Assembly (NCBI GenBank): GCA_964428845.1
Contig: CAYRZH010000001.1
Span: 204,445 to 268,444, forward strand
Direction: 5' to 3'
Length of the DNA: 64,000 nucleotides
Source: an uncultured Candidatus Saccharibacteria bacterium
GTDB taxonomy: Bacteria > Patescibacteriota > Minisyncoccia > Phycocordibacterales > DATGWK01
The notes below the pieces were generated by a model. That model made no database searches. It worked only from the letters and a program-made list of their open reading frames with translations, and was not told where the DNA came from. Numbering within the stretch: position 1 is the stretch's first letter; the number at the start of each line of letters is the position of its first letter. Both the position numbers and the translations under genes were made by a program. Shown piece after piece: positions 1 through 64,000 of the stretch.

Positions 1-523
1 GTCGGGGACATTCTCTCACAGATCAGTCCCTCGACTTCAGCATCAATAAAATCGTTCATCTTAAGTCCGAACTTTGCCAGAATATCAGCGTACACGCCGT
101 GCATGAAAGTGTCCGTACCGAAGCCAAGATGGGCCAGCAGATCGCGCTCAACTTTGCGGAGCTCGTCGATACCGCCTGGGGCCTCGAACTCGAACATGGG
201 GAAGATGAGATCATGCCGACCAGGGATCGGGTTCGGTTCCTGCCGGAAGCTTGTCGAAACACAGAAGACGCCCGGCAGAGTCGGATCCCGAAGAAGTTCT
301 TCCTCCAGATCCATCTGGCCGGTTTGTGGAAGCGACCAGAGACGTCCCGCGTAGCTGAAGGTTCCGATCGTTCTCGGGTCCTCACACGCCGCGAGAATGC
401 TTAGTCGATTCCCGGTGTGGACCTCGACGAAATCACGACCGAGAAAAAACTGCCGGAGACGTTGGACCACAAGGTTGAATTCCCGAGGGTTAATCGGCGC
501 GATGACTGTCATACCAGCTCCTT
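1..523 (-). CDS. Class II aminoacyl-tRNA-synthetase-like catalytic core paralog (EpmA/GenX- or AsnA-like), 5' part only; the gene runs off the left edge. Lies in a G+C-rich region.
   Basis: Reverse-strand translation from the ATG at 523 gives MTVIAPINPREFNLVVQRLRQFFLGRDFVEVHT ... SFRQEPNPIPGRHDLIFPMFEFEAP. This matches class II motif 1/2 architecture (compare EpmA RRFFADRGVLEVETP ... CRSFRNEE.GRYHNPEFTMLEWY). There is no anticodon-binding domain before the core. SD-like GGAGCTGG sits upstream of the ATG. Confidence 0.5.
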
Positions 524-645
524 CTTGTTTGGGGTTTCTGGTTATTCAGTTTTGAGGCACTTTCCTAATGCACGACGAGTGCAACAGTTCTAAAACTTAA
601 GTGTAGCATATGGCTTAGCTGGTACAAGGTGTGGTTTGTTTTGGT

Positions 646-662
646 GCGCGATGAGGGACTCG
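646..662. repeat. Partial copy of the tRNA-Val 3' end (GCGCGATGAGGGACTCG), att-like
   Basis: 16/17 nt identical to the 1747-1763 segment inside tRNA-Val and to the copy at 1596-1612. Confidence 0.5.
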
Positions 663-705
663 GTCATGACTAACTTTATAGCTCAATGTGGGTATTGTTT
701 TTACA

Positions 706-734
706 TTGACAACTTACCTTAAATCTGATACAAT
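706..734 (+). promoter_or_regulatory. Sigma70-type promoter TTGACA-17-TACAAT driving P1, followed by a ~160-nt leader with a 12-bp stem (gtcgccatagcc...ggctgtggcgac)
   Basis: Exact consensus hexamers with 17-nt spacer were read directly from the sequence. Confidence 0.45.
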
Positions 735-892
735 CAAAGGTGGAAAATATGCTCATTTAAAAGAACTACTTCGTTGTCGCCATAGCCTAGAGTGGCTTTA
801 CACAGGCCTTTCCCGGCTGTGGCGACAATGTGTTGCCCAGACTCTCATAATCCGCTGACCCAAATGGGAAAGCAAATCAAAGGAGAAATCCG

Positions 893-1495
893 ATGAATAC
901 GACGATGAGCACCAAGCAACTCCAGTCACTTCTGGACCTCGCTGAACAGAAGGGGCTCACTCCAGAGCGCATGACTGTGATTCTTGCCTCTGGAGTCCTC
1001 GCAGATGTCCTTGATGCCGGTGCGCTTCTTTCGAACCGTGGAGCGGTTCGTCGGGCCCTGGGTCTCGGACCGCTCGAGTTCCAGATCACCGTGGACTACA
1101 CCCTCGACCTCGCTGCGATGATCGCAGCCGGCAAGTACGACTACGTCAACCCCGACATCATGGCCGGCAGTTTCCCGATCAAGGGAGAAGGCAAGCGGGA
1201 ACTGACAGCCCAGCTCGTCCACTTCAACCGTGTCATCTCATCAGATGATGTGGAGAAGGAACTCTCCAAGAAAGGCCTGCGGCCCGCCACGATCGAGGAA
1301 CTCCTTGCCTTCGGGGCGACATTCCCTGAAGTGCAGCGCAGATTCCCGATCATCGCTCTTGGCTCTGTCGCCGAGGTCCGCGGCCGCCGGAGCGTTTCGG
1401 CTCTCGGCGGGGACAGGTCCGGGCGCAACCTCTACCTGTACTGGCGTGTCAGCGATTGGCTTGGGCTCTGCCGTTTCCTCGCCCTCCCCAAGTAG
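893..1495 (+). CDS. Uncharacterized protein, family member P1 (G+C-rich cassette gene)
   Basis: 200-aa ORF with SD AAAGGAG 8 nt upstream. Its core (YDYVNPDIMAGSF...LVHFNRVISSDDVEKEL) aligns with P2 and P3 (NPxIT.ENY ... F.VKVF.I...VSSDD.L). It is followed by a GC-clamp terminator. Confidence 0.5.
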   Translation: MNTTMSTKQLQSLLDLAEQKGLTPERMTVILASGVLADVLDAGALLSNRGAVRRALGLGPLEFQITVDYTLDLAAMIAAGKYDYVNPDIMAGSFPIKGEGKRELTAQLVHFNRVISSDDVEKELSKKGLRPATIEELLAFGATFPEVQRRFPIIALGSVAEVRGRRSVSALGGDRSGRNLYLYWRVSDWLGLCRFLALPK

Positions 1496-1514
1496 TTCTC
1501 TTCTCTGGTTCTCA

Positions 1515-1555
1515 CCCCGCGCGGGCTTAAATGTTCGCGCGGGTTTTCGTTTTAT
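1515..1555 (+). terminator. Rho-independent terminator (CCCGCGCG-loop-CGCGCGGG + T-tract)
   Basis: Perfect 8-bp GC stem followed by TTTTCGTTTT. Confidence 0.6.
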
Positions 1556-1595
1556 TAGCTACTCTCTCTTCACAGAGAAACGATACGTCTTTGTG

Positions 1596-1612
1596 CGCGC
1601 TGAGGGACTCGG
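1596..1612. repeat. Second partial copy of the tRNA-Val 3' end (GCGCGCTGAGGGACTCG), att-like
   Basis: 17/17 nt identical to the 1747-1763 segment of tRNA-Val. Confidence 0.55.
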
Positions 1613-1744
1613 TCACGCGTATTCGCCTGCTGGCGAATCGCGCGACCCCGGCTCGGCGCCGTCGCGCCTGCGCCCTTCTCGTCCCTCATCGCGTCCTAAT
1701 GATGCTTCGTTCGGAAGCCTCCCAGGCTCCCTCACGAATCATTA

Positions 1745-1817
1745 TGCGCGCTGAGGGACTCGAACCCCCGACCCACTGAGTGTAAATCAGTTGCTCTACC
1801 AACTGAGCTAAGCGCGC
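1745..1817 (-). tRNA. tRNA-Val (anticodon TAC)
   Basis: Reverse complement folds as a 73-nt cloverleaf. Acceptor GCGCGCT/AGCGCGC, D-loop AGTTGGTA, anticodon loop TTTACAC, T-loop TTCGAGT. CCA is not encoded. Confidence 0.85.
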
Positions 1818-1885
1818 GTATTTGTCTTGCGAAGTAACAATATTCTATAACCCCAACTTTTTCAACTCTGTGATAGTATCTCGGC

Positions 1886-3280: not shown

Positions 3281-3964
3281 ATGGGGAATAGCGGGCCAAA
3301 ACCAAAAGGCAAAATAAAGATTAAATGGTCCTCAAATTTTGCCTATGCCATTGGGCTTATTGCCACAGACGGAAACCTTTCTCCAAGTGGTCGTCATATA
3401 GTCTTTACATCTAAGGACTTTGAACAAATAAATAATTTCAAGAAGATTCTACGTTTAACAAATAAAATAGGGAAAAAGGGAAATGGTAGTAGTAAGGAGA
3501 AAAAATATTATGTCTTGCAATTTGGAGACGTCCTATTTTATTCATTTCTCGGGAAAATAGGCATATCTCCTGCAAAATCCAAAACCATAGGCCCTATTCA
3601 AGTTCCAGATAAATTCTTTTTTGATTTTCTAAGGGGATGTTTTGATGGCGATGGGTGCAGTTATAGTTATTGGGATAAGCGTTGGAAATCCAGCTTTCTT
3701 TTCTATATTTCCCTAGCTTCCGCGAGCGAACCTTTTATTTCTTGGGTTAGAAAAAAAGTAAAGCAGTTTGTGGGCGTATCTGGCCACGTTAGCAAACTAA
3801 AAAATGCTTCAGGTTTTCAATTGAGATATGCAAAAAACGATGCAAAGAAGATTGTTTATGAAATGTACAGAAAACCTAATAGTGTTTTCTTGAAAAGGAA
3901 AAAGTTGAAAATCAACAGATCTTTGGCTATTATGAGCCAATTCCCCAAAAGACGACTAAAGTGA
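3281..3964 (+). CDS. LAGLIDADG homing endonuclease, free-standing, very AT-rich
   Basis: Two LAGLIDADG motifs: YAIGLIATDGNL and FLRGCFDGDGCS. Own promoter-like TTGAGG-17-TACAAT lies upstream. The gene ends 16 nt before tRNA-Leu. Confidence 0.8.
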   Translation: MGNSGPKPKGKIKIKWSSNFAYAIGLIATDGNLSPSGRHIVFTSKDFEQINNFKKILRLTNKIGKKGNGSSKEKKYYVLQFGDVLFYSFLGKIGISPAKSKTIGPIQVPDKFFFDFLRGCFDGDGCSYSYWDKRWKSSFLFYISLASASEPFISWVRKKVKQFVGVSGHVSKLKNASGFQLRYAKNDAKKIVYEMYRKPNSVFLKRKKLKINRSLAIMSQFPKRRLK

Positions 3965-4751: not shown

Positions 4752-5399
4752 GTGGGTATCGGGACAAATATTTTCGGCTCTTTTCTCACATTGAATTTGG
4801 CAAATCGTCGCCGGCGGGGAATGGCTATGTTCGGACACAAAAAGCCTGATTCAGCCGCACGTATTTTGGGTAGGGGAACGACCGACCGCTTCAAACTCAT
4901 CGACGAGTTCGAGGTCGTCGTGCCGATGGATTATGTTCACGCCACCTGTCTCTCTGATCTTGCGAGGGATTTCGGACACATGATCTCCCCTTTTTACCCT
5001 GTATTGACTGACGACAACTACAGAAACGTGACGACCCGCATGGAGCCAGGGGAAAGATTTGTGGCAAAGATTTTTCACATTGTTGGGCTGGAAACTTCTT
5101 TTGCCTGTCTGGGTTTGCTTGATCGGGAGAGAGCCATTCTGGCCGGGGCCCAGGGGCTGGCTCTCGTTTTTCGGGTGGCGAAGGACAGACTACCTCCCGA
5201 TCTCTGGACAGTTTCTTTCGACAGACCAGACGCATTGTTCTTCGATAGCCACAACGGCTGTCACCGGGTGCCGACCATTGGGCCATCCAGACAAAATCCC
5301 GGCAAGGGAGAGTTCCACTCCGGCTTCTTTGAACCCTTCGAGGGGGATAAGGGTTGGGATGCTCGCTTCTGTCTTCTCTGTCTTGTTCGTCAAGGGTAG
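4752..5399 (+). CDS. Uncharacterized protein, family member P2 (G+C-rich cassette gene)
   Basis: GTG start 6 nt after AAAGGAG. Core FEVVVPMDYVHAT...YPVLTDDNYRNVTTRMEPGERFVAKIFHIVGLETS...AILAGAQGLAL...LWTVSFDRPDAL ... FCLLCL aligns with P3. Confidence 0.5.
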   Translation: MGIGTNIFGSFLTLNLANRRRRGMAMFGHKKPDSAARILGRGTTDRFKLIDEFEVVVPMDYVHATCLSDLARDFGHMISPFYPVLTDDNYRNVTTRMEPGERFVAKIFHIVGLETSFACLGLLDRERAILAGAQGLALVFRVAKDRLPPDLWTVSFDRPDALFFDSHNGCHRVPTIGPSRQNPGKGEFHSGFFEPFEGDKGWDARFCLLCLVRQG

Positions 5400-5579: not shown

Positions 5580-6209
5580 ATGGTTGAAAGCGCTGAATTT
5601 GGTGTAAAAAAAGATCAACTCCCAGACGACAAATTAAACAGTATTATAGAAAAATACTGCGCCTCCTTGGTGGTTCCAAAAGATAAACCAAAGAAACAAT
5701 TTTTTCTTTGCCCAGTCGGCCTTATTGGGTCTGGCAAGACAACGGTTTTAAAGCCTTTGGCCGAAAAATTGAATCTTGTGCGTATATCTGGAGATGAAAT
5801 TAGGAAGATACTTTATGACCTGGGTTTTGATTATGATCGAACGTGGGAGATAGGGAGTATGGTTGTTGAAAGATATGCCAGAGAAGGATACAGCATTGCT
5901 CACGATACTGATTGTGCTACTCCAAAAACTATTGAGGCGATAAATAAACTCTCTAAGGAATTGGGTGCCCAGGTAGTATGGGTGCACGTCAACCCTCCAG
6001 AAGAATTTATTTTAAATAAGTTAAGGAAATATAAACACACATGGCTATATCGTGACGGTGAACATGCCATATCCAATTATTTAAGCCGAAAAAAAGTGCA
6101 CGAAAATTTACCAATGAATTTTCTTTATTCGTTTGATACATCTAAACCCAATCTCGACGAACAAATAGAACAAGCTTCGGAAGTCATTTTAAACAAGACC
6201 CAATTTTAA
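5580..6209 (+). CDS. P-loop NTPase / small kinase-like protein (Walker A GLIGSGKTT), AT-rich
   Basis: Walker A motif and ~210-aa size typical of AAA_33/zeta-toxin-like or nucleoside-kinase-like proteins. Family not assignable by eye. Confidence 0.55.
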   Translation: MVESAEFGVKKDQLPDDKLNSIIEKYCASLVVPKDKPKKQFFLCPVGLIGSGKTTVLKPLAEKLNLVRISGDEIRKILYDLGFDYDRTWEIGSMVVERYAREGYSIAHDTDCATPKTIEAINKLSKELGAQVVWVHVNPPEEFILNKLRKYKHTWLYRDGEHAISNYLSRKKVHENLPMNFLYSFDTSKPNLDEQIEQASEVILNKTQF

Positions 6210-6365
6210 TGTCTTTAGCCAGCCATAACTCCTCTTTTTATAAAATCAATAGATTCTCTCATAAGAATCTATTGATCATATTCGAGGGATGTGTATGATG
6301 AGAACAGAATTAATTTATGGGCAAATAAGGTTTTAACCCCGACTGAAATCAACAGGAGCATAGAG

Positions 6366-6581
6366 ATGAAAGCCGCAAGCTTGTCCCACCGTCAATGGTT
6401 TACTCGAGAGGGGCCTGATCGTCGCGTTTACGAGAGACTCCCTGGCCTTCCGGAGATTGTAGAGGGGGTCATGGCGATTCCAGTCCGACCGATTACGCCT
6501 ACTGTAAGACAACCAGGCTACTACATTCCAGCGGATGAATCGGTCGAAGTATGTCCTTCGAGATGTGTTCGGGTCGCATAA
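6366..6581 (+). CDS. Small hypothetical protein (72 aa) in a moderately G+C-rich patch
   Basis: CAGGAG SD 8 nt upstream of ATG. No recognisable motif. The opposite-strand ORF 6333-6611 is an alternative. Confidence 0.2.
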   Translation: MKAASLSHRQWFTREGPDRRVYERLPGLPEIVEGVMAIPVRPITPTVRQPGYYIPADESVEVCPSRCVRVA

Positions 6582-18910: not shown

Positions 18911-19009
18911 TCACAGATCAGTACCTGCTGGGCCGTTTTGTTCAGGGGTGTAGCCTCCTGATTGGAAGGATGTTACTTCTCAAAACGATTCAGCGAAAGG
19001 AGGTGATCC

Positions 19010-19162
19010 GTGTTCGACTCGATCGGATGGCCCGCCAAGGTCCCGAAGAGGCGTCATAGGCTCTGTGCGAGTGTCGCCGGCCACGCGATGCCGCGCCGGC
19101 ACGCTCGCCGCCGGAACGCGAACCCCGACACCCTCAACCCTGTGGCCACAACCACGTCCTGA
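19010..19162 (+). CDS. Small Arg-rich ORF 1 (50 aa, GTG start) with KVPKRR motif
   Basis: AAAGGAGG SD 6 nt upstream. Followed by the terminator at 19231. The motif is conserved with ORF 2 despite compensating indels. Confidence 0.3.
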   Translation: MFDSIGWPAKVPKRRHRLCASVAGHAMPRRHARRRNANPDTLNPVATTTS

Positions 19163-19230
19163 CACCGAACAACGCCCAACCAAAAAGAAAGGACCCTCTC
19201 TGCCGCCGATCTCGTGTCGGCGCGCCTTCT

Positions 19231-19265
19231 CCCCCGAGCGCTATCGCGCTCGGGGGATTTTCTTG
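19231..19265 (+). terminator. Rho-independent terminator CCCCCGAGCGC-TATC-GCGCTCGGGGG + ATTTTCTTG
   Basis: Perfect 11-bp GC stem. Confidence 0.65.
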
Positions 19266-19289
19266 TCGAAAAATCTAGATATACACAGC

Positions 19290-19320
19290 AGGGAATTGAC
19301 GCCTTTCTGCAGGAGCGCTA
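19290..19320 (+). promoter_or_regulatory. Promoter TTGACG-17-TACTCT of mini-module 2
   Basis: Preceded by the same TAGATATACACA motif as module 1. Confidence 0.3.
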
Positions 19321-19422
19321 CTCTCTCATGTAGAGAACGTATCGTGTAGGCGAGCGACGCCTAGTACGTTTCGGCCAAGACTGCACGCTTCGGCGTAAAG
19401 TCTAGTAAAAGGAGGATGAGCA

Positions 19423-19500
19423 TTGCAGATCACCCTGCAGATCGCGGCCTCTCTGCCGGACAAGGTTCCCCGAAGACGTCAGATCAGGATGACGGAGTAA
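19423..19500 (+). CDS. Small Arg-rich ORF 2 (25 aa, TTG start) with KVPRRR motif
   Basis: AAAGGAGG SD 7 nt upstream. The alternative ATG at 19416 gives a 43-aa ORF in another frame. Confidence 0.25.
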   Translation: MQITLQIAASLPDKVPRRRQIRMTE

Positions 19501-19609
19501 GCGGTGGACGCGTGGACACAACCTGTGTCCGTGTGGTTCTCGCGTGACCTTCGGTGACTCCTGGTCTCCCCGGTATCAACCGGTTCACACAACGGATGTG
19601 TAACGGCGT

Positions 19610-42086: not shown

Positions 42087-42800
42087 CTTCGAACCCATAA
42101 CCCTTAGACCCTCAATCCCCAGTTTGCCAAACGGCAGGCTGGGGATTTTCTTTTACGGGAAACCAACATTATCTGTAAAACCTATAAGCCCTTGACTTTT
42201 TATATAATTATGCTAAGATCCAGGCAGAAATCAGCGGCGAAATGGTGTTCAGAGTAGCCACATAAACAAGATCTTTCAAGGGAGAAGTGTCATGAATAGC
42301 CTCTCGTGTCGTCGGGGTTTCTCGTTTGTCGAGCGTGTGATCGTGATCATCATTGCTTGCATCCTGGTATCGATCGTCATTTCGCGCTTCGGGCCCAACG
42401 GCCCGGCGCCGCAGGTGATGGTTACCACCCCGAGCGGTGAGGAGGCGGAAGTCAAGGTCGGCGAGATCATTATGGTGACCTTGAGGAGAGGCAAAGGCCT
42501 CAGCTATCACCTCGAAGAGGGGACCTACCTGATCAGTGCGATCGAGTACAATGGAGTGAACTGGGAAGTTGGTCTCCGCAAACTCGGGAAACCCGGATTC
42601 CCCAGACTCACTTACTTTCTGAGTGACTATGTGTTCAAGAAGGAGACGAGTACCTATATCTGGGTTCAGGTGATCGAACCCACTGATCCGCAGTACAAAG
42701 ATCTCATGGTCGAGTTCGCCAAGGGGGGTGGTAAGTAGGAAGAAGGGAGTGTGACACAAGTCGCCGACCATGGGGTTGGCGATTTTCTTTATCCATCCAT
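42087..42800. repeat. Copy A of a ~715-bp 100%-identical direct repeat (terminator + prepilin-like gene); part of a 1.6-kb tandem duplication
   Basis: Identical to 43684-44398 at an offset of ~1598 bp. Begins with a strong terminator (12-bp stem CCCCAGTTTGCC-AAAC-GGCAGGCTGGGG + ATTTTCTTTT). Confidence 0.85.
42292..42738 (+). CDS. Prepilin-type N-terminal cleavage/methylation-domain protein (pseudopilin-like), copy A
   Basis: RRG|FSFVERVIVIIIACILVSIV matches G-F-x-x-x-E with hydrophobic helix; 148 aa. Confidence 0.5.
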   Translation: MNSLSCRRGFSFVERVIVIIIACILVSIVISRFGPNGPAPQVMVTTPSGEEAEVKVGEIIMVTLRRGKGLSYHLEEGTYLISAIEYNGVNWEVGLRKLGKPGFPRLTYFLSDYVFKKETSTYIWVQVIEPTDPQYKDLMVEFAKGGGK

Positions 42801-42822
42801 TTCTTTATGCCGCACTCTCTTC

Positions 42823-42870
42823 ATGAAATTTAATAAAAAGATACTAAAGAGTGGTTTGCGTCTCATTACT
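42823..42870 (+). pseudogene. Duplicated 5' fragment of the M16 peptidase gene (MKFNKKILKSGLRLIT) left at the duplication junction. It runs in-frame through the P4 promoter/leader.
   Basis: Near-identical to the N-terminus of the intact gene at 44421. Confidence 0.55.
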
Positions 42871-42879
42871 GCGCTACTA

Positions 42880-42909
42880 TTGACTTGTGTACCATTCGTA
42901 TTATATAAT
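42880..42909 (+). promoter_or_regulatory. Promoter TTGACT-18-TATAAT of P4 plus the conserved structured leader
   Basis: Paralogous to 41253-41366. Confidence 0.45.
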
Positions 42910-42990
42910 CTCGCGCAGAAAGAGTATGGCACTGTGCTGTATTCTAGTTCCCTCAAACCGCTTCTTCGGAAGCAAAGGAAGGAAATGCCC

Positions 42991-43698
42991 ATGAGTAGTG
43001 GGAATGTCCGACTGATCACGTCTGGTCAAAAGTTCGAATTAGCGGCGGCGCTCGTCAAGGCGGTTCCGGAATTAGATTCGATGCCATTTGAGACTGCCCG
43101 GCGATGGATCGGCGATCAGAAGGCTATTGCCTGCGCCCTGTCGCAGGCTCTCATGCCGGCCGAGGTCGTTGGGGCACAGAAGACTATCCTCCGTCTGATT
43201 CCCGGTGCCGAGGCTCTCACCCTCGGACCCACCGACGGCCAGGCAACGATCGCAGAGTCAAGGGGCGTCTTCAACAACGTCGACCCCGGCTTCACGACCT
43301 GGGGAACAAACGTCCCCGGAGTCGCCACCGGGGAGATCGCTGTCTCTGTCTACGAATTGGTTGCAGACGCTTCCTTCGAGCAGATGTTCGGGTCGCTCCC
43401 CGCACGCCTCGGCGCGCTCTGTCTCACACAGGCTCAAATCATCAAGTTCGTACTAACACGCCAGCGTCACCTCCGCACCGACGGCTACGCCACGTTCTTC
43501 CTTTTCGAAGTGGGAAGCGAGTTTTTCGTCGCGCACGTGTACCTGCCCGCCGGTGGCGACCCCCATGTGCACTTCTACCGCCTCTCGGGCGCCTTCGGCT
43601 GGCACCGCGAGCACCGCCATCGCATCGTGGTTCCGCAACTCACCCCTGCCCGTCCCGGAATCCTGCCCCCAGCTCGATTCTCTGCTTCGAACCCATAA
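42991..43698 (+). CDS. Uncharacterized protein, divergent family member P4 (G+C-rich cassette gene)
   Basis: SD AAAGGAAGGAA 8 nt upstream. Retains only parts of the family core (FNNVDPGFTTWGTNVPGVATGEIAVSVYEL vs YNPSITDENY...LVPGRGFRVKVFQI). The C-terminus runs into repeat B. Confidence 0.4.
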   Translation: MSSGNVRLITSGQKFELAAALVKAVPELDSMPFETARRWIGDQKAIACALSQALMPAEVVGAQKTILRLIPGAEALTLGPTDGQATIAESRGVFNNVDPGFTTWGTNVPGVATGEIAVSVYELVADASFEQMFGSLPARLGALCLTQAQIIKFVLTRQRHLRTDGYATFFLFEVGSEFFVAHVYLPAGGDPHVHFYRLSGAFGWHREHRHRIVVPQLTPARPGILPPARFSASNP

Positions 43699-44398
43699 CC
43701 TTTAGACCCTCAATCCCCAGTTTGCCAAACGGCAGGCTGGGGATTTTCTTTTACGGGAAACCAACATTATCTGTAAAACCTATAAGCCCTTGACTTTTTA
43801 TATAATTATGCTAAGATCCAGGCAGAAATCAGCGGCGAAATGGTGTTCAGAGTAGCCACATAAACAAGATCTTTCAAGGGAGAAGTGTCATGAATAGCCT
43901 CTCGTGTCGTCGGGGTTTCTCGTTTGTCGAGCGTGTGATCGTGATCATCATTGCTTGCATCCTGGTATCGATCGTCATTTCGCGCTTCGGGCCCAACGGC
44001 CCGGCGCCGCAGGTGATGGTTACCACCCCGAGCGGTGAGGAGGCGGAAGTCAAGGTCGGCGAGATCATTATGGTGACCTTGAGGAGAGGCAAAGGCCTCA
44101 GCTATCACCTCGAAGAGGGGACCTACCTGATCAGTGCGATCGAGTACAATGGAGTGAACTGGGAAGTTGGTCTCCGCAAACTCGGGAAACCCGGATTCCC
44201 CAGACTCACTTACTTTCTGAGTGACTATGTGTTCAAGAAGGAGACGAGTACCTATATCTGGGTTCAGGTGATCGAACCCACTGATCCGCAGTACAAAGAT
44301 CTCATGGTCGAGTTCGCCAAGGGGGGTGGTAAGTAGGAAGAAGGGAGTGTGACACAAGTCGCCGACCATGGGGTTGGCGATTTTCTTTCTCCCTATCT
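43684..44398. repeat. Copy B of the ~715-bp identical direct repeat
   Basis: See copy A. Confidence 0.85.
43890..44336 (+). CDS. Prepilin-like protein, copy B (identical to copy A)
   Basis: Identical ORF translation. Confidence 0.5.
   Translation: MNSLSCRRGFSFVERVIVIIIACILVSIVISRFGPNGPAPQVMVTTPSGEEAEVKVGEIIMVTLRRGKGLSYHLEEGTYLISAIEYNGVNWEVGLRKLGKPGFPRLTYFLSDYVFKKETSTYIWVQVIEPTDPQYKDLMVEFAKGGGK

Positions 44399-62004: not shown

Positions 62005-64000
<1,996 letters not shown>

Follow-up and report, generated by a model that had tools for sequence, protein, structure and literature searches.

Why should the 3' end of one tRNA gene be copied twice into the DNA that follows it? The question is raised by the left end of a 64,000-nt stretch (the window) from an uncultured Candidatus Saccharibacteria bacterium (assembly GCA_964428845.1, contig CAYRZH010000001.1, positions 204,445 to 268,444), in which partial copies of the tRNA-Val(UAC) tail bracket short segments of DNA. 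An original prediction, made from the letters alone, had taken this layout for the scars of tandem site-specific integration. With moderate confidence we read the locus as an insertion slot linked to tRNA-Val(UAC) with two units in tandem, both of which end in a copy of the tRNA 3' segment starting at C56. The units would be moved by site-specific recombination in trans; the outer one carries a gene (P1), and the inner one, a structured segment named X, would most likely be a non-coding mini-element or attachment (att) module. The X family, together with the comparative evidence for a variable cassette slot, is the main addition to the original prediction. Patescibacteria have tiny genomes with few recognised mobile elements, and their gene exchange is poorly understood. 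Should X prove to be a mobile att module, it would represent a minimal protein-free vehicle for gene-cassette traffic and a handle for finding the recombinase; should it be an RNA, it would be a widespread tRNA-linked small RNA.

Copies of the tRNA-Val tail and the slot they delimit

The 17-mer GCGCGMTGAGGGACTCG is found exactly three times in the window (646–662, 1595–1611 and 1746–1762, all on the plus strand), and permitting two mismatches adds no further copy within the 64 kb. The chance expectation obtained from 100 dinucleotide shuffles is 0.02 copies, and three or more copies were reached in none of the shuffles. The 17-mer is the complement of tRNA-Val positions 56–72, which comprise the 3' half of the T loop and the 3' strands of the T stem and of the acceptor stem. 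Both extra copies lie 3' of the tRNA gene in direct orientation. The three co-oriented copies on the 3' side of the gene had been recognised in the original prediction and are borne out by exact matching and by the shuffles; the position given for the first copy holds, whereas those for the second and third were each 1 nt too high. The features of this region are given below; homologous or X-bearing contigs fetched for comparison are designated by L-numbers (L001, L095 etc.).

3–512, minus strand: N-terminal 170 codons of an aminoacyl-tRNA synthetase-like (aaRS-like) protein, a class-II catalytic core only, AsnRS/AspRS-like, from a family of ~290 aa
513–634, minus strand: upstream region of the aaRS-like gene, probably the ancestral tRNA-Val trailer and intergenic flank, aligning with L095 987–1166
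635–666, plus strand: copy 1, the probable displaced ancestral tRNA-Val 3' end, with 26 nt identical to the L095 distal fragment and trailer; 642–644 (TGG) corresponds to the encoded CCA, 645 to the discriminator and 646–662 to tRNA positions 72–56
663–666/667, plus strand: X-type GGTCA junction at the edge of copy 1
1745–1817, minus strand: tRNA-Val(UAC) gene, anticodon TAC (ARAGORN; Rfam tRNA, 73 bits), holding copy 3 (1746–1762); CCA not encoded
1837–1865, minus strand: promoter-like site upstream of tRNA-Val, TTGAAA-17-TATTGT

Copies 1 and 2 have a block of 29 nt in common (638–666 and 1587–1615, 26/29 identical), which includes the non-tRNA sequence GGTCA. TGG, which reads CCA on the other strand, precedes copy 1, and TAAT follows the present tRNA-Val gene. 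An inverted repeat copy, GTCCCTCATCGCG, is located at 1681–1693, inside the 135-bp segment that separates copy 2 from the tRNA gene. These three features do not figure in the original prediction. A scan for tail copies of the 47 tRNAs in all fetched loci was positive only for tRNA-Val(TAC), in the window and eight loci, and for one tRNA-Leu; the copies were always direct and never inverted. The two objections foreseen in the original prediction, namely a chance or common motif and a contig chimeric near 1740, are extremely improbable as explanations of the repeats. Three copies of the 17-mer stand in the 64 kb against the 0.02 expected, and the gene order running from the aaRS-like gene through tRNA-Val (−), RluD (+), L19 (+) and tRNA-Leu to tRNA-His recurs across 1740 in four independent assemblies (L092, L095, L059 and L043).

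The outer edge of the slot can be followed in L095, where the order is aaRS-like gene (on the same strand as in the window), an exact 23-nt copy of the tRNA-Val tail, uppS on the opposite strand (Pfam E = 2e-74), tRNA-Val and RluD. Window positions 470–700 align with L095 across this fragment: 26 nt (AGUCCCUCAUCGCGCACCAAAACAAA, 635–660) are identical, and the flank is recognisably homologous up to the gene start, with the blocks ATGCTACA and TTTTAGAACTGT(T/C)GCA common to both within 513–634 and the latter motif also present in L092 and L088. Against this identity of 26 nt, the aaRS-like proteins of the window and L095 are merely 50% identical. Copy 1 has an encoded CCA and the U67 allele, in agreement with the tRNA-Val genes of relatives (U67, with C, CC or CCA encoded); in the present gene position 67 is G and the CCA is missing. 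The L095 distal fragment has the same CACCAAAACAAA as copy 1. Copy 1 and its flank are orthologous to the L095 fragment and its flank, and copy 1 most probably represents the displaced tail of an ancestral tRNA-Val. In L092 the equivalent frame encloses an open reading frame (ORF) of 121 aa, and the tRNA fragment consists merely of degenerate remains. The content of the slot differs among relatives: P1 in the window, uppS in L095 and the 121-aa ORF in L092. In L095 (1167–1225) the displaced tRNA fragment gives TTGAAA at a suitable distance from TATAGG upstream of uppS, and it may serve as the −35 element of this cassette gene.

The aaRS-like gene has more than 7,900 homologues with PF00152, is 64% identical to a Parcubacteria protein and shows weak AsnRS similarity in PDB. 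Since its homologue adjoins tRNA-Val in L092 and L095, the gene is a syntenic host gene that bounds the slot and not a part of island DNA, and its reading as island cargo was rejected. The original prediction had noted G+C-rich DNA running leftward through this gene and had offered, as one option, the right end of a larger island. An island that continues through the gene is contradicted by the synteny; high G+C is a trait of the aaRS-like and P1 families, even in hosts of 36–42% G+C. The spacers between the aaRS-like gene and the P1 cassette have ~42% G+C.

It was considered that the slot requires no site-specific system, being a rearrangement-prone intergenic region in which the repeats result from RecA recombination or decay between tRNA-Val paralogues and duplicated tails. 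RecA is encoded in the window and an integrase motif was not found there, uppS in the L095 slot resembles shuffled host DNA, and the fragment in L092 is degenerate. However, the fragment boundaries fall within ~3 nt in the T loop in the window, in L095, in all X units and in the tRNA-Leu case described below, the copies are direct without exception, and exact repeats of 20–32 nt flank units of a single gene or less. These regularities make ordinary rearrangement improbable.

The structured element X

The original prediction of tandem integration at the tRNA 3' end stands in so far as the outermost repeat probably is a displaced tail at the far edge of a variable slot, and its two tandem units with no integrase visible, trans-mobilised or decayed, are laid out as described. 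The 135-bp "cassette", by contrast, is neither a scar nor a decayed mini-element: it belongs to a conserved covarying family, X, found after tRNA genes in many Patescibacteria. Likewise, the inner repeat bounding P1 is not a plain tRNA fragment; it is the 3' end of X. The parts of this segment are as follows.

1587–1615, plus strand: copy 2, the 3' end of X, with 18 nt identical to the tRNA-Val 3' end
1591–1695, minus strand: X, a three-way-junction element of ~105 nt (covariance model, 101 bits)
1681–1693, plus strand: inverted repeat copy, the 5' strand of the X closing helix, pairing 13/13 with copy 1 and 12/13 with copy 2
1694–1682 with 1609–1597: closing helix of X (helix P1, distinct from the P1 gene), 5' CGCGAUGAGGGAC with 3' GUCCCUCAGCGCG
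in X: helix P2, GGC/GCC and GGCGC-GACG-GCGCC
in X: helix P3, a 16-bp stem with the loop AGCA and an invariant G.U near its base
1696–1744, minus strand: P0 hairpin between tRNA-Val and X, U-run absent here

The minus strand of 1590–1745 is predicted to fold with −91.8 kcal/mol (z = −9.8) into the P0 hairpin followed by the three-way junction of X. RNAalifold finds compensatory changes at 10 of 21 pairs. A covariance model was built from eight sequences and then used to align 13 units; in this alignment 86.6% of the cells pair and both sides have changed in 19/30 pairs, while none of 500 shuffles reaches any of the measures and slid controls pair at 32–46%. The 3-bp outer stem of P2 flips between GCC/GGC and GGC/GCC across genomes, and the junction sequences are conserved across genomes of 35–56% G+C. 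In P2 and P3, G.U pairs outnumber A.C by 19 to 2, which indicates that the tRNA-sense strand is the folding strand. Rfam 15 gives no match to X at E ≤ 10 for the window and four X-bearing loci, a scan of the window at the Rfam gathering thresholds returns only tRNAs and 23S rRNA, and a literature search yielded no relevant account of a tRNA-adjacent Patescibacteria RNA. Hammerhead, K-turn/box C/D and RNase P CR-I-like readings of X were tried by eye and none fitted. X is a conserved, covarying, tRNA-adjacent family that is absent from Rfam. For the complete tRNA-Val-P0-X transcript (1588–1817, minus strand, −127.9 kcal/mol) the tRNA 3' end is predicted to pair with the X 5' strand and the tRNA 5' end with the X 3' end, an arrangement that would compete with the cloverleaf.

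Other members of the family were obtained by a metagenome scan with the non-tRNA form of the repeat, GCGCGMTGAGGGACTCGGTCA, which returned eight loci. In seven of them, all Patescibacteria-like contigs of 35–56% G+C, the motif lies on the strand of a tRNA-Val(TAC) gene, 90–340 nt after it; the remaining locus is a chance match in coding DNA of 67% G+C. The sequence between tRNA-Val and the motif is homologous across the seven loci, and its hairpins still pair even where their sequence has been replaced completely. A second X in L057 (76 bits) follows tRNA-Leu(GAG): its last 21 nt are the tail of that tRNA, CGAGUCUCCCCCUGCGCACCC, and its 5' strand carries GAGACUCG in place of GGACUCG, matching the tRNA-Leu tail. 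At its 3' end X carries a copy of the tail of the tRNA before it, be it Val or Leu, and its 5' end is complementary to that copy; the copied segment starts at T-loop position 56 (C56) in all tRNA-derived X ends. Tandem X units occur in L059, L060, L061 and L062, and in L055, L059 and L062 the repeat continues into the trailer, reaching 14–40 nt or more beyond the end of the tRNA. Plain alignment of the 135-bp segment to L043 failed, and the divergent unit of that locus was found by the covariance model. X is absent from L092 and L095, the two closest relatives compared (RluD 72% and 67% identical), and also from L006, and it is present in more distant genomes with RluD identity of 49–61%; its distribution is patchy relative to host relatedness.

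With regard to the features of miniature inverted-repeat transposable elements and repetitive extragenic palindromes, the complementary ends of X measure 10–13 nt and its "duplication" is 18–32 nt of tRNA tail; the window has a single X, and every known copy is tRNA-adjacent. Carriage by phages was rejected: scans of IMG/VR, with matches rechecked by the covariance model, and BLAST of GenBank phages found no X, and IMG/VR gave merely a phage tRNA(CUA) with the same tail. This tRNA (L053 5758–5831, on an IMG/VR contig of 89 kb and 46% G+C) has the amber suppressor anticodon CUA and agrees exactly with the A6:U67 variant of Patescibacteria tRNA-Val in the acceptor and T arms, including the encoded CCA. 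Judged by this tRNA, L053 may stem from a phage that infects these bacteria and recodes TAG.

A serious rival for the nature of X is a vertically inherited small RNA gene residing in tRNA transcription units. Its closing helix would have been formed from a duplicated tail for maturation or stabilisation by tRNA enzymes, tandem units and repeats would have arisen via unequal crossing-over and gene conversion, and only the P1 cassette would have been inserted. The strong covariation with its invariant G.U pair, the 19 to 2 ratio on the tRNA-sense strand, the invariable location on the strand of the tRNA and the junctions conserved over such a range of G+C all agree with an RNA. The window has no terminator between tRNA-Val and X, so X could be made as RNA, and in L056 it lies between tRNA-Val and tRNA-Arg, 9–12 nt from the latter, inside a tRNA cluster. 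In most other genomes, however, the equivalent of P0 is a terminator-like hairpin with a U-run directly upstream of X, which leaves no room for a promoter and argues against X as a simply co-transcribed RNA gene. Moreover, X is missing in the nearest relatives and present in distant ones, and in several genomes its 5' strand pairs only with the T-stem/T-loop part, so that a mimic of the acceptor/T minihelix is not conserved. The repeats of L055, L059 and L062 reach into the non-functional trailer, and the Leu-linked X would need a mechanism that acquires both the tail and its complement. We therefore consider the small RNA gene possible, although rather doubtful.

The likeliest reading of X is a non-coding mini-element or att module. 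It is favoured by the inverse-core/core layout, conservation at the level of structure, strand-specific folding, patchiness and the position behind terminators. A bolder version, which we judge unlikely as it stands, would make X a new class of non-coding self-folding integrative mini-element with the segment from the T loop to the 3' end of a tRNA as att core. Carrying both the core and its complement, its single strand would fold into a duplex att site as attC does, and tRNA genes would be integron-like platforms at which integrase-less single-gene cassettes (P1, uppS) are stacked and exchanged by a recombinase acting in trans.

The P1 cassette

The outer unit contains the following features.

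667–1586, plus strand: P1 cassette (920 bp), a self-contained transcription unit bounded by the 29-nt repeats
706–734, plus strand: promoter-like site TTGACA-17-TACAAT with a TG extension, 11/12 consensus positions
774–828, plus strand: 5' untranslated region (5'-UTR) hairpin of the P1 family, the inverted repeat TCGCCATAGC ... GCTATGGCGAC, with a stem invariant in five loci
893–1495, plus strand: P1 gene for a 200-aa protein of C-type-lectin fold, with a region equivalent to a variable repeat (VR) at ~1361–1489
1516–1553, plus strand: P1 terminator, a GC-rich hairpin and T-run, located where targets of diversity-generating retroelements (DGRs) have a hairpin after the VR

The P1 protein has no Pfam or NCBIfam match. 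Its 174 homologues are nearly all from Patescibacteria, the rest being from other uncultured lineages, and in their C-terminal ~43 residues invariant columns alternate with hypervariable ones. The top ~30 fold matches in PDB to the AlphaFold model (pLDDT 91.7) are C-type lectin-like domains, with weak E-values from 0.01 and probabilities up to 0.99. In L001 the last 130 nt of the P1 homologue are repeated 350 bp downstream and followed by an RVT_1 gene; 14/14 differences between the repeats fall at adenines of the downstream copy. Among 40 loci with P1 homologues, a pair of VR and template repeat (TR) is present in 13 and a reverse transcriptase (RT) in 11, with mismatches at TR adenines of, for example, 14/14 and 19/19. 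P1 is a member of this DGR target family and an orphan in the window: no second copy of 1340–1500, as expected of a TR, exists anywhere in the 64 kb, and tblastn with the L001 RT gave no match better than E = 1. The homology to complete DGR loci starts at ~683 (~25 nt upstream of the −35 element) and stops just past the terminator; the promoter-like site is conserved in L001, L002 and L045. The locus indicates that DGR variable-protein genes travel as stand-alone cassettes without their retroelement, which bears on the origin of "remote" DGR targets. P1-family genes are richer in G+C than their hosts everywhere (e.g. 0.62 vs 0.39), and as a family trait this excess is not evidence of recent import.

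The 5'-UTR hairpin has no Rfam family match. Upstream of it the 10-nt GAACTACTTG is complementary to CAAGTAGTTC, which spans the stop codon (window 759–828 and 1490–1502; L001 5881–5940 and 6600–6612; conserved in L002 and L045 too), and the possible 5'-3' pairing predicted across the P1 mRNA likewise has no match in Rfam. A circular mini-element of 0.95 kb was rejected, as the contigs of ~900–1000 bp with P1 homologues are assembly breaks at the VR/TR; an example is L046, which ends 800 bp past the P1-homologue gene. In L001 (5080–8500) the complete DGR (target, TR and RT) and a Y1 transposase of IS200/IS605 type lie inside the S10 operon between rplB and rpsS, with identical hairpin repeats on both sides of the transposase gene. 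The syntenic Nomurabacteria contig L043 has a degenerate A+T-rich P1-like gene between RluD and rplS (5929–6429; 33% identity, 34% G+C, no TR or RT), and L056 has a full RT and a P1-like pair beside RluD. The position of the L043 gene beside RluD suggests that a relative of the DGR targets is a recurrent neighbour of this tRNA cluster.

The TGG before copy 1 brings up a further explanation, in which the copies are retro-products: the mature tRNA-Val 3' end with its CCA would have been joined to the antisense of P1 mRNA by tRNA-primed reverse transcription or by template switching of a DGR-like RT. The TGG would then be accounted for, although the present gene encodes no CCA, and the P1 family is associated with RT. 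Yet C, CC or CCA forms part of the relatives' genes and the L095 fragment has CACCAAAACAAA, so that the TGG was inherited with the genome. A promoter lies within the cassette and would be missing from a copy of the mRNA, the inner unit represents a conserved family with no relation to P1, tblastn found no RT in the window, and junctions of a tRNA tail and CCA at the 3' end of P1-family cassettes were seen in 0/40 loci. A retro-origin of the copies is thus very improbable.

Some other features of the window were recorded. Between rplS and tRNA-Leu, in a stretch of 33–38% G+C, lies a free-standing LAGLIDADG-type ORF (3281–3964) that is absent from the syntenic L043, L059, L092 and L095. An ORF of 215 aa (4752–5399, ~54% G+C) is found ~600 bp past tRNA-His and has no Pfam or NCBIfam match; it was compared with P1 as a possible paralogue, and no similarity was seen. 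The only other stretches with at least 58% G+C are 18,980–19,600, with no convincing ORF, and 42,750–43,700, with an ORF of 315 aa and no Pfam match. The 5' 1.6 kb of a 23S rRNA gene (62005–64000) runs off the right end.

Proposed assembly of the slot and comparison with known systems

In the proposed order, read from the tRNA on its strand, tRNA-Val is followed by P0 and X, by copy 2 as the X 3' end, by the P1 cassette on the opposite strand and by copy 1, which would still be joined to the original trailer and the aaRS-like host gene. The units would enter by conservative site-specific recombination between a circular intermediate with a tRNA-tail core and a chromosomal copy; tRNA-Val itself would be the first target, and the copy that terminates X a later one. 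The crossover probably falls inside the 15-nt block UGACCGAGUCCCUCA common to copies 1 and 2, and the incoming DNA would regenerate the tRNA 3' end, giving the present gene its G67 without CCA and leaving U67 with CCA in the displaced piece. The recombinase would be supplied in trans from outside the window, and the X single strand would fold so that its tRNA-tail core becomes duplex. The difference between copy 1 and the present gene at position 67 and at the CCA fits an incoming unit that regenerates the tail. The pairing of the X 5' strand, complete with copy 1 and one short of complete with copy 2, agrees with the P1 cassette having arrived later, at the terminus of X, and having brought copy 2 with it.

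Besides the missing terminator in the window and the tRNA cluster of L056, several points weigh against a mobile X and a cassette slot. Motif scans, and tblastn for RT, detected no integrase, resolvase or RT motif in the 64-kb window, and motif scans of the X-bearing loci found no recombinase. The comparison proposed in the original prediction as a way to an empty tRNA-Val site yielded the differently occupied slots of L095 and L092, but no truly empty one (tRNA-Val leading straight to the aaRS-like gene) among the relatives compared. No excised form was seen among the assemblies, and the ~950-bp contigs with P1 homologues are not circles. The slot gene of L095, uppS, is normally an essential housekeeping gene and an odd cargo for a mobile cassette. 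The search pattern held Val-specific sequence, so the association with tRNA-Val is biased by design. Finally, some weaker X-like units have no tRNA-derived ends, and the tRNA tail is not obligatory for the family: the closing helix of L043 is built from the unrelated GUUUUGUG/CACAAAAC, and L061b, L057a and L056b build theirs weakly at best.

The bracketed DNA itself has no integrase or recombinase ORF. A Pfam screen of the window gave no recombinase among the 25 of 74 families listed, which is not decisive. Large serine recombinase genes (Resolvase, Recombinase and Zn_ribbon_recom) are present in L059 (2892–4415, minus strand), abutting the 3' end of tRNA-Leu(GAG), and in L092 (10285–11901, minus strand), abutting the 3' end of tRNA-His; these positions indicate that relatives have an element integrated at the adjacent tRNA cluster.

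The proposed slot resembles the genomic islands at tRNA and tmRNA genes in the Islander definition (PMC4383910) and tycheposon arrays with their partial-tRNA remnants (bioRxiv 10.1101/2020.12.28.424599). As in these islands, an intact, apparently regenerated tRNA stands at one end, the far end is marked by a displaced 3' fragment in direct orientation, units accumulate one after another at a single tRNA, and the content of the slot varies between relatives. The T loop, where the repeat starts here, is reportedly a classical sublocation of crossover, a view ascribed to Williams in 2002. Unlike the islands, the units are as small as 0.13 and 0.95 kb, neither they nor, by the scans run, the 64 kb revealed an integrase, and one of them is purely non-coding, conserved and folded. 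The second unit would target the copy at the end of the first and not the tRNA, and neither an excised form nor an empty site was observed.

Like an integron attC with its R'' and R', X has the inverse complement of the platform core, in this case the tRNA tail, at its start and a direct copy of that core at its end. It is conserved in structure rather than in arm sequence and is foldable in a strand-specific manner, and the locus has tandem single-gene integrase-less cassettes as integrons do. X may be regarded as analogous to attC, but it fails the defining features of that family: the window has no IntI (no tyrosine recombinase motif), the GTTRRRY core and RYYYAAC inverse core are absent, and X has conserved junction sequences and a three-way junction in place of a bulged hairpin. 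Moreover, the P1 and uppS cassettes carry no X of their own, and the P1 cassette has its own promoter.

With DGR targets, including the remote and orphan ones known from DGR ecology (PMC8144416), P1 shares the C-type-lectin fold, the C-terminal ~43 codons corresponding to the VR of its homologues and the GC-rich hairpin after the gene, and the TR adjacent to those homologues differs only at adenines. Unlike a complete DGR, P1 has no TR or RT within the 64 kb, and the cassette ends exactly where the TR-RT module begins. TIGR arrays are built of 36-nt repeat units with box C/D-like repeats and adjoin a Nop-domain Tas gene (PMC12045711). X was excluded from them, its units being 100–230 nt long and one to three in number, with no Nop-domain (Tas) gene seen alongside.

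Functional RNAs can be released from tRNA precursors, as is the 3' external transcribed spacer of leuZ. X likewise follows a tRNA directly, is encoded on its strand and could be co-transcribed, but it differs from this spacer in copying and complementing the tail, in occurring in tandem, in being often preceded by a terminator and in its patchy distribution. Integrase-less att-flanked elements that are mobilised in trans are also known, namely satellites and cis-mobilizable elements (CIMEs), the latter being decayed derivatives of larger integrative and conjugative elements. The units described here share with them the flanking att-like repeats, the lack of a recombinase gene and the tandem location with others at one site. 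Unlike CIMEs, X is compact and conserved across genomes of very different G+C content, with compensatory changes.

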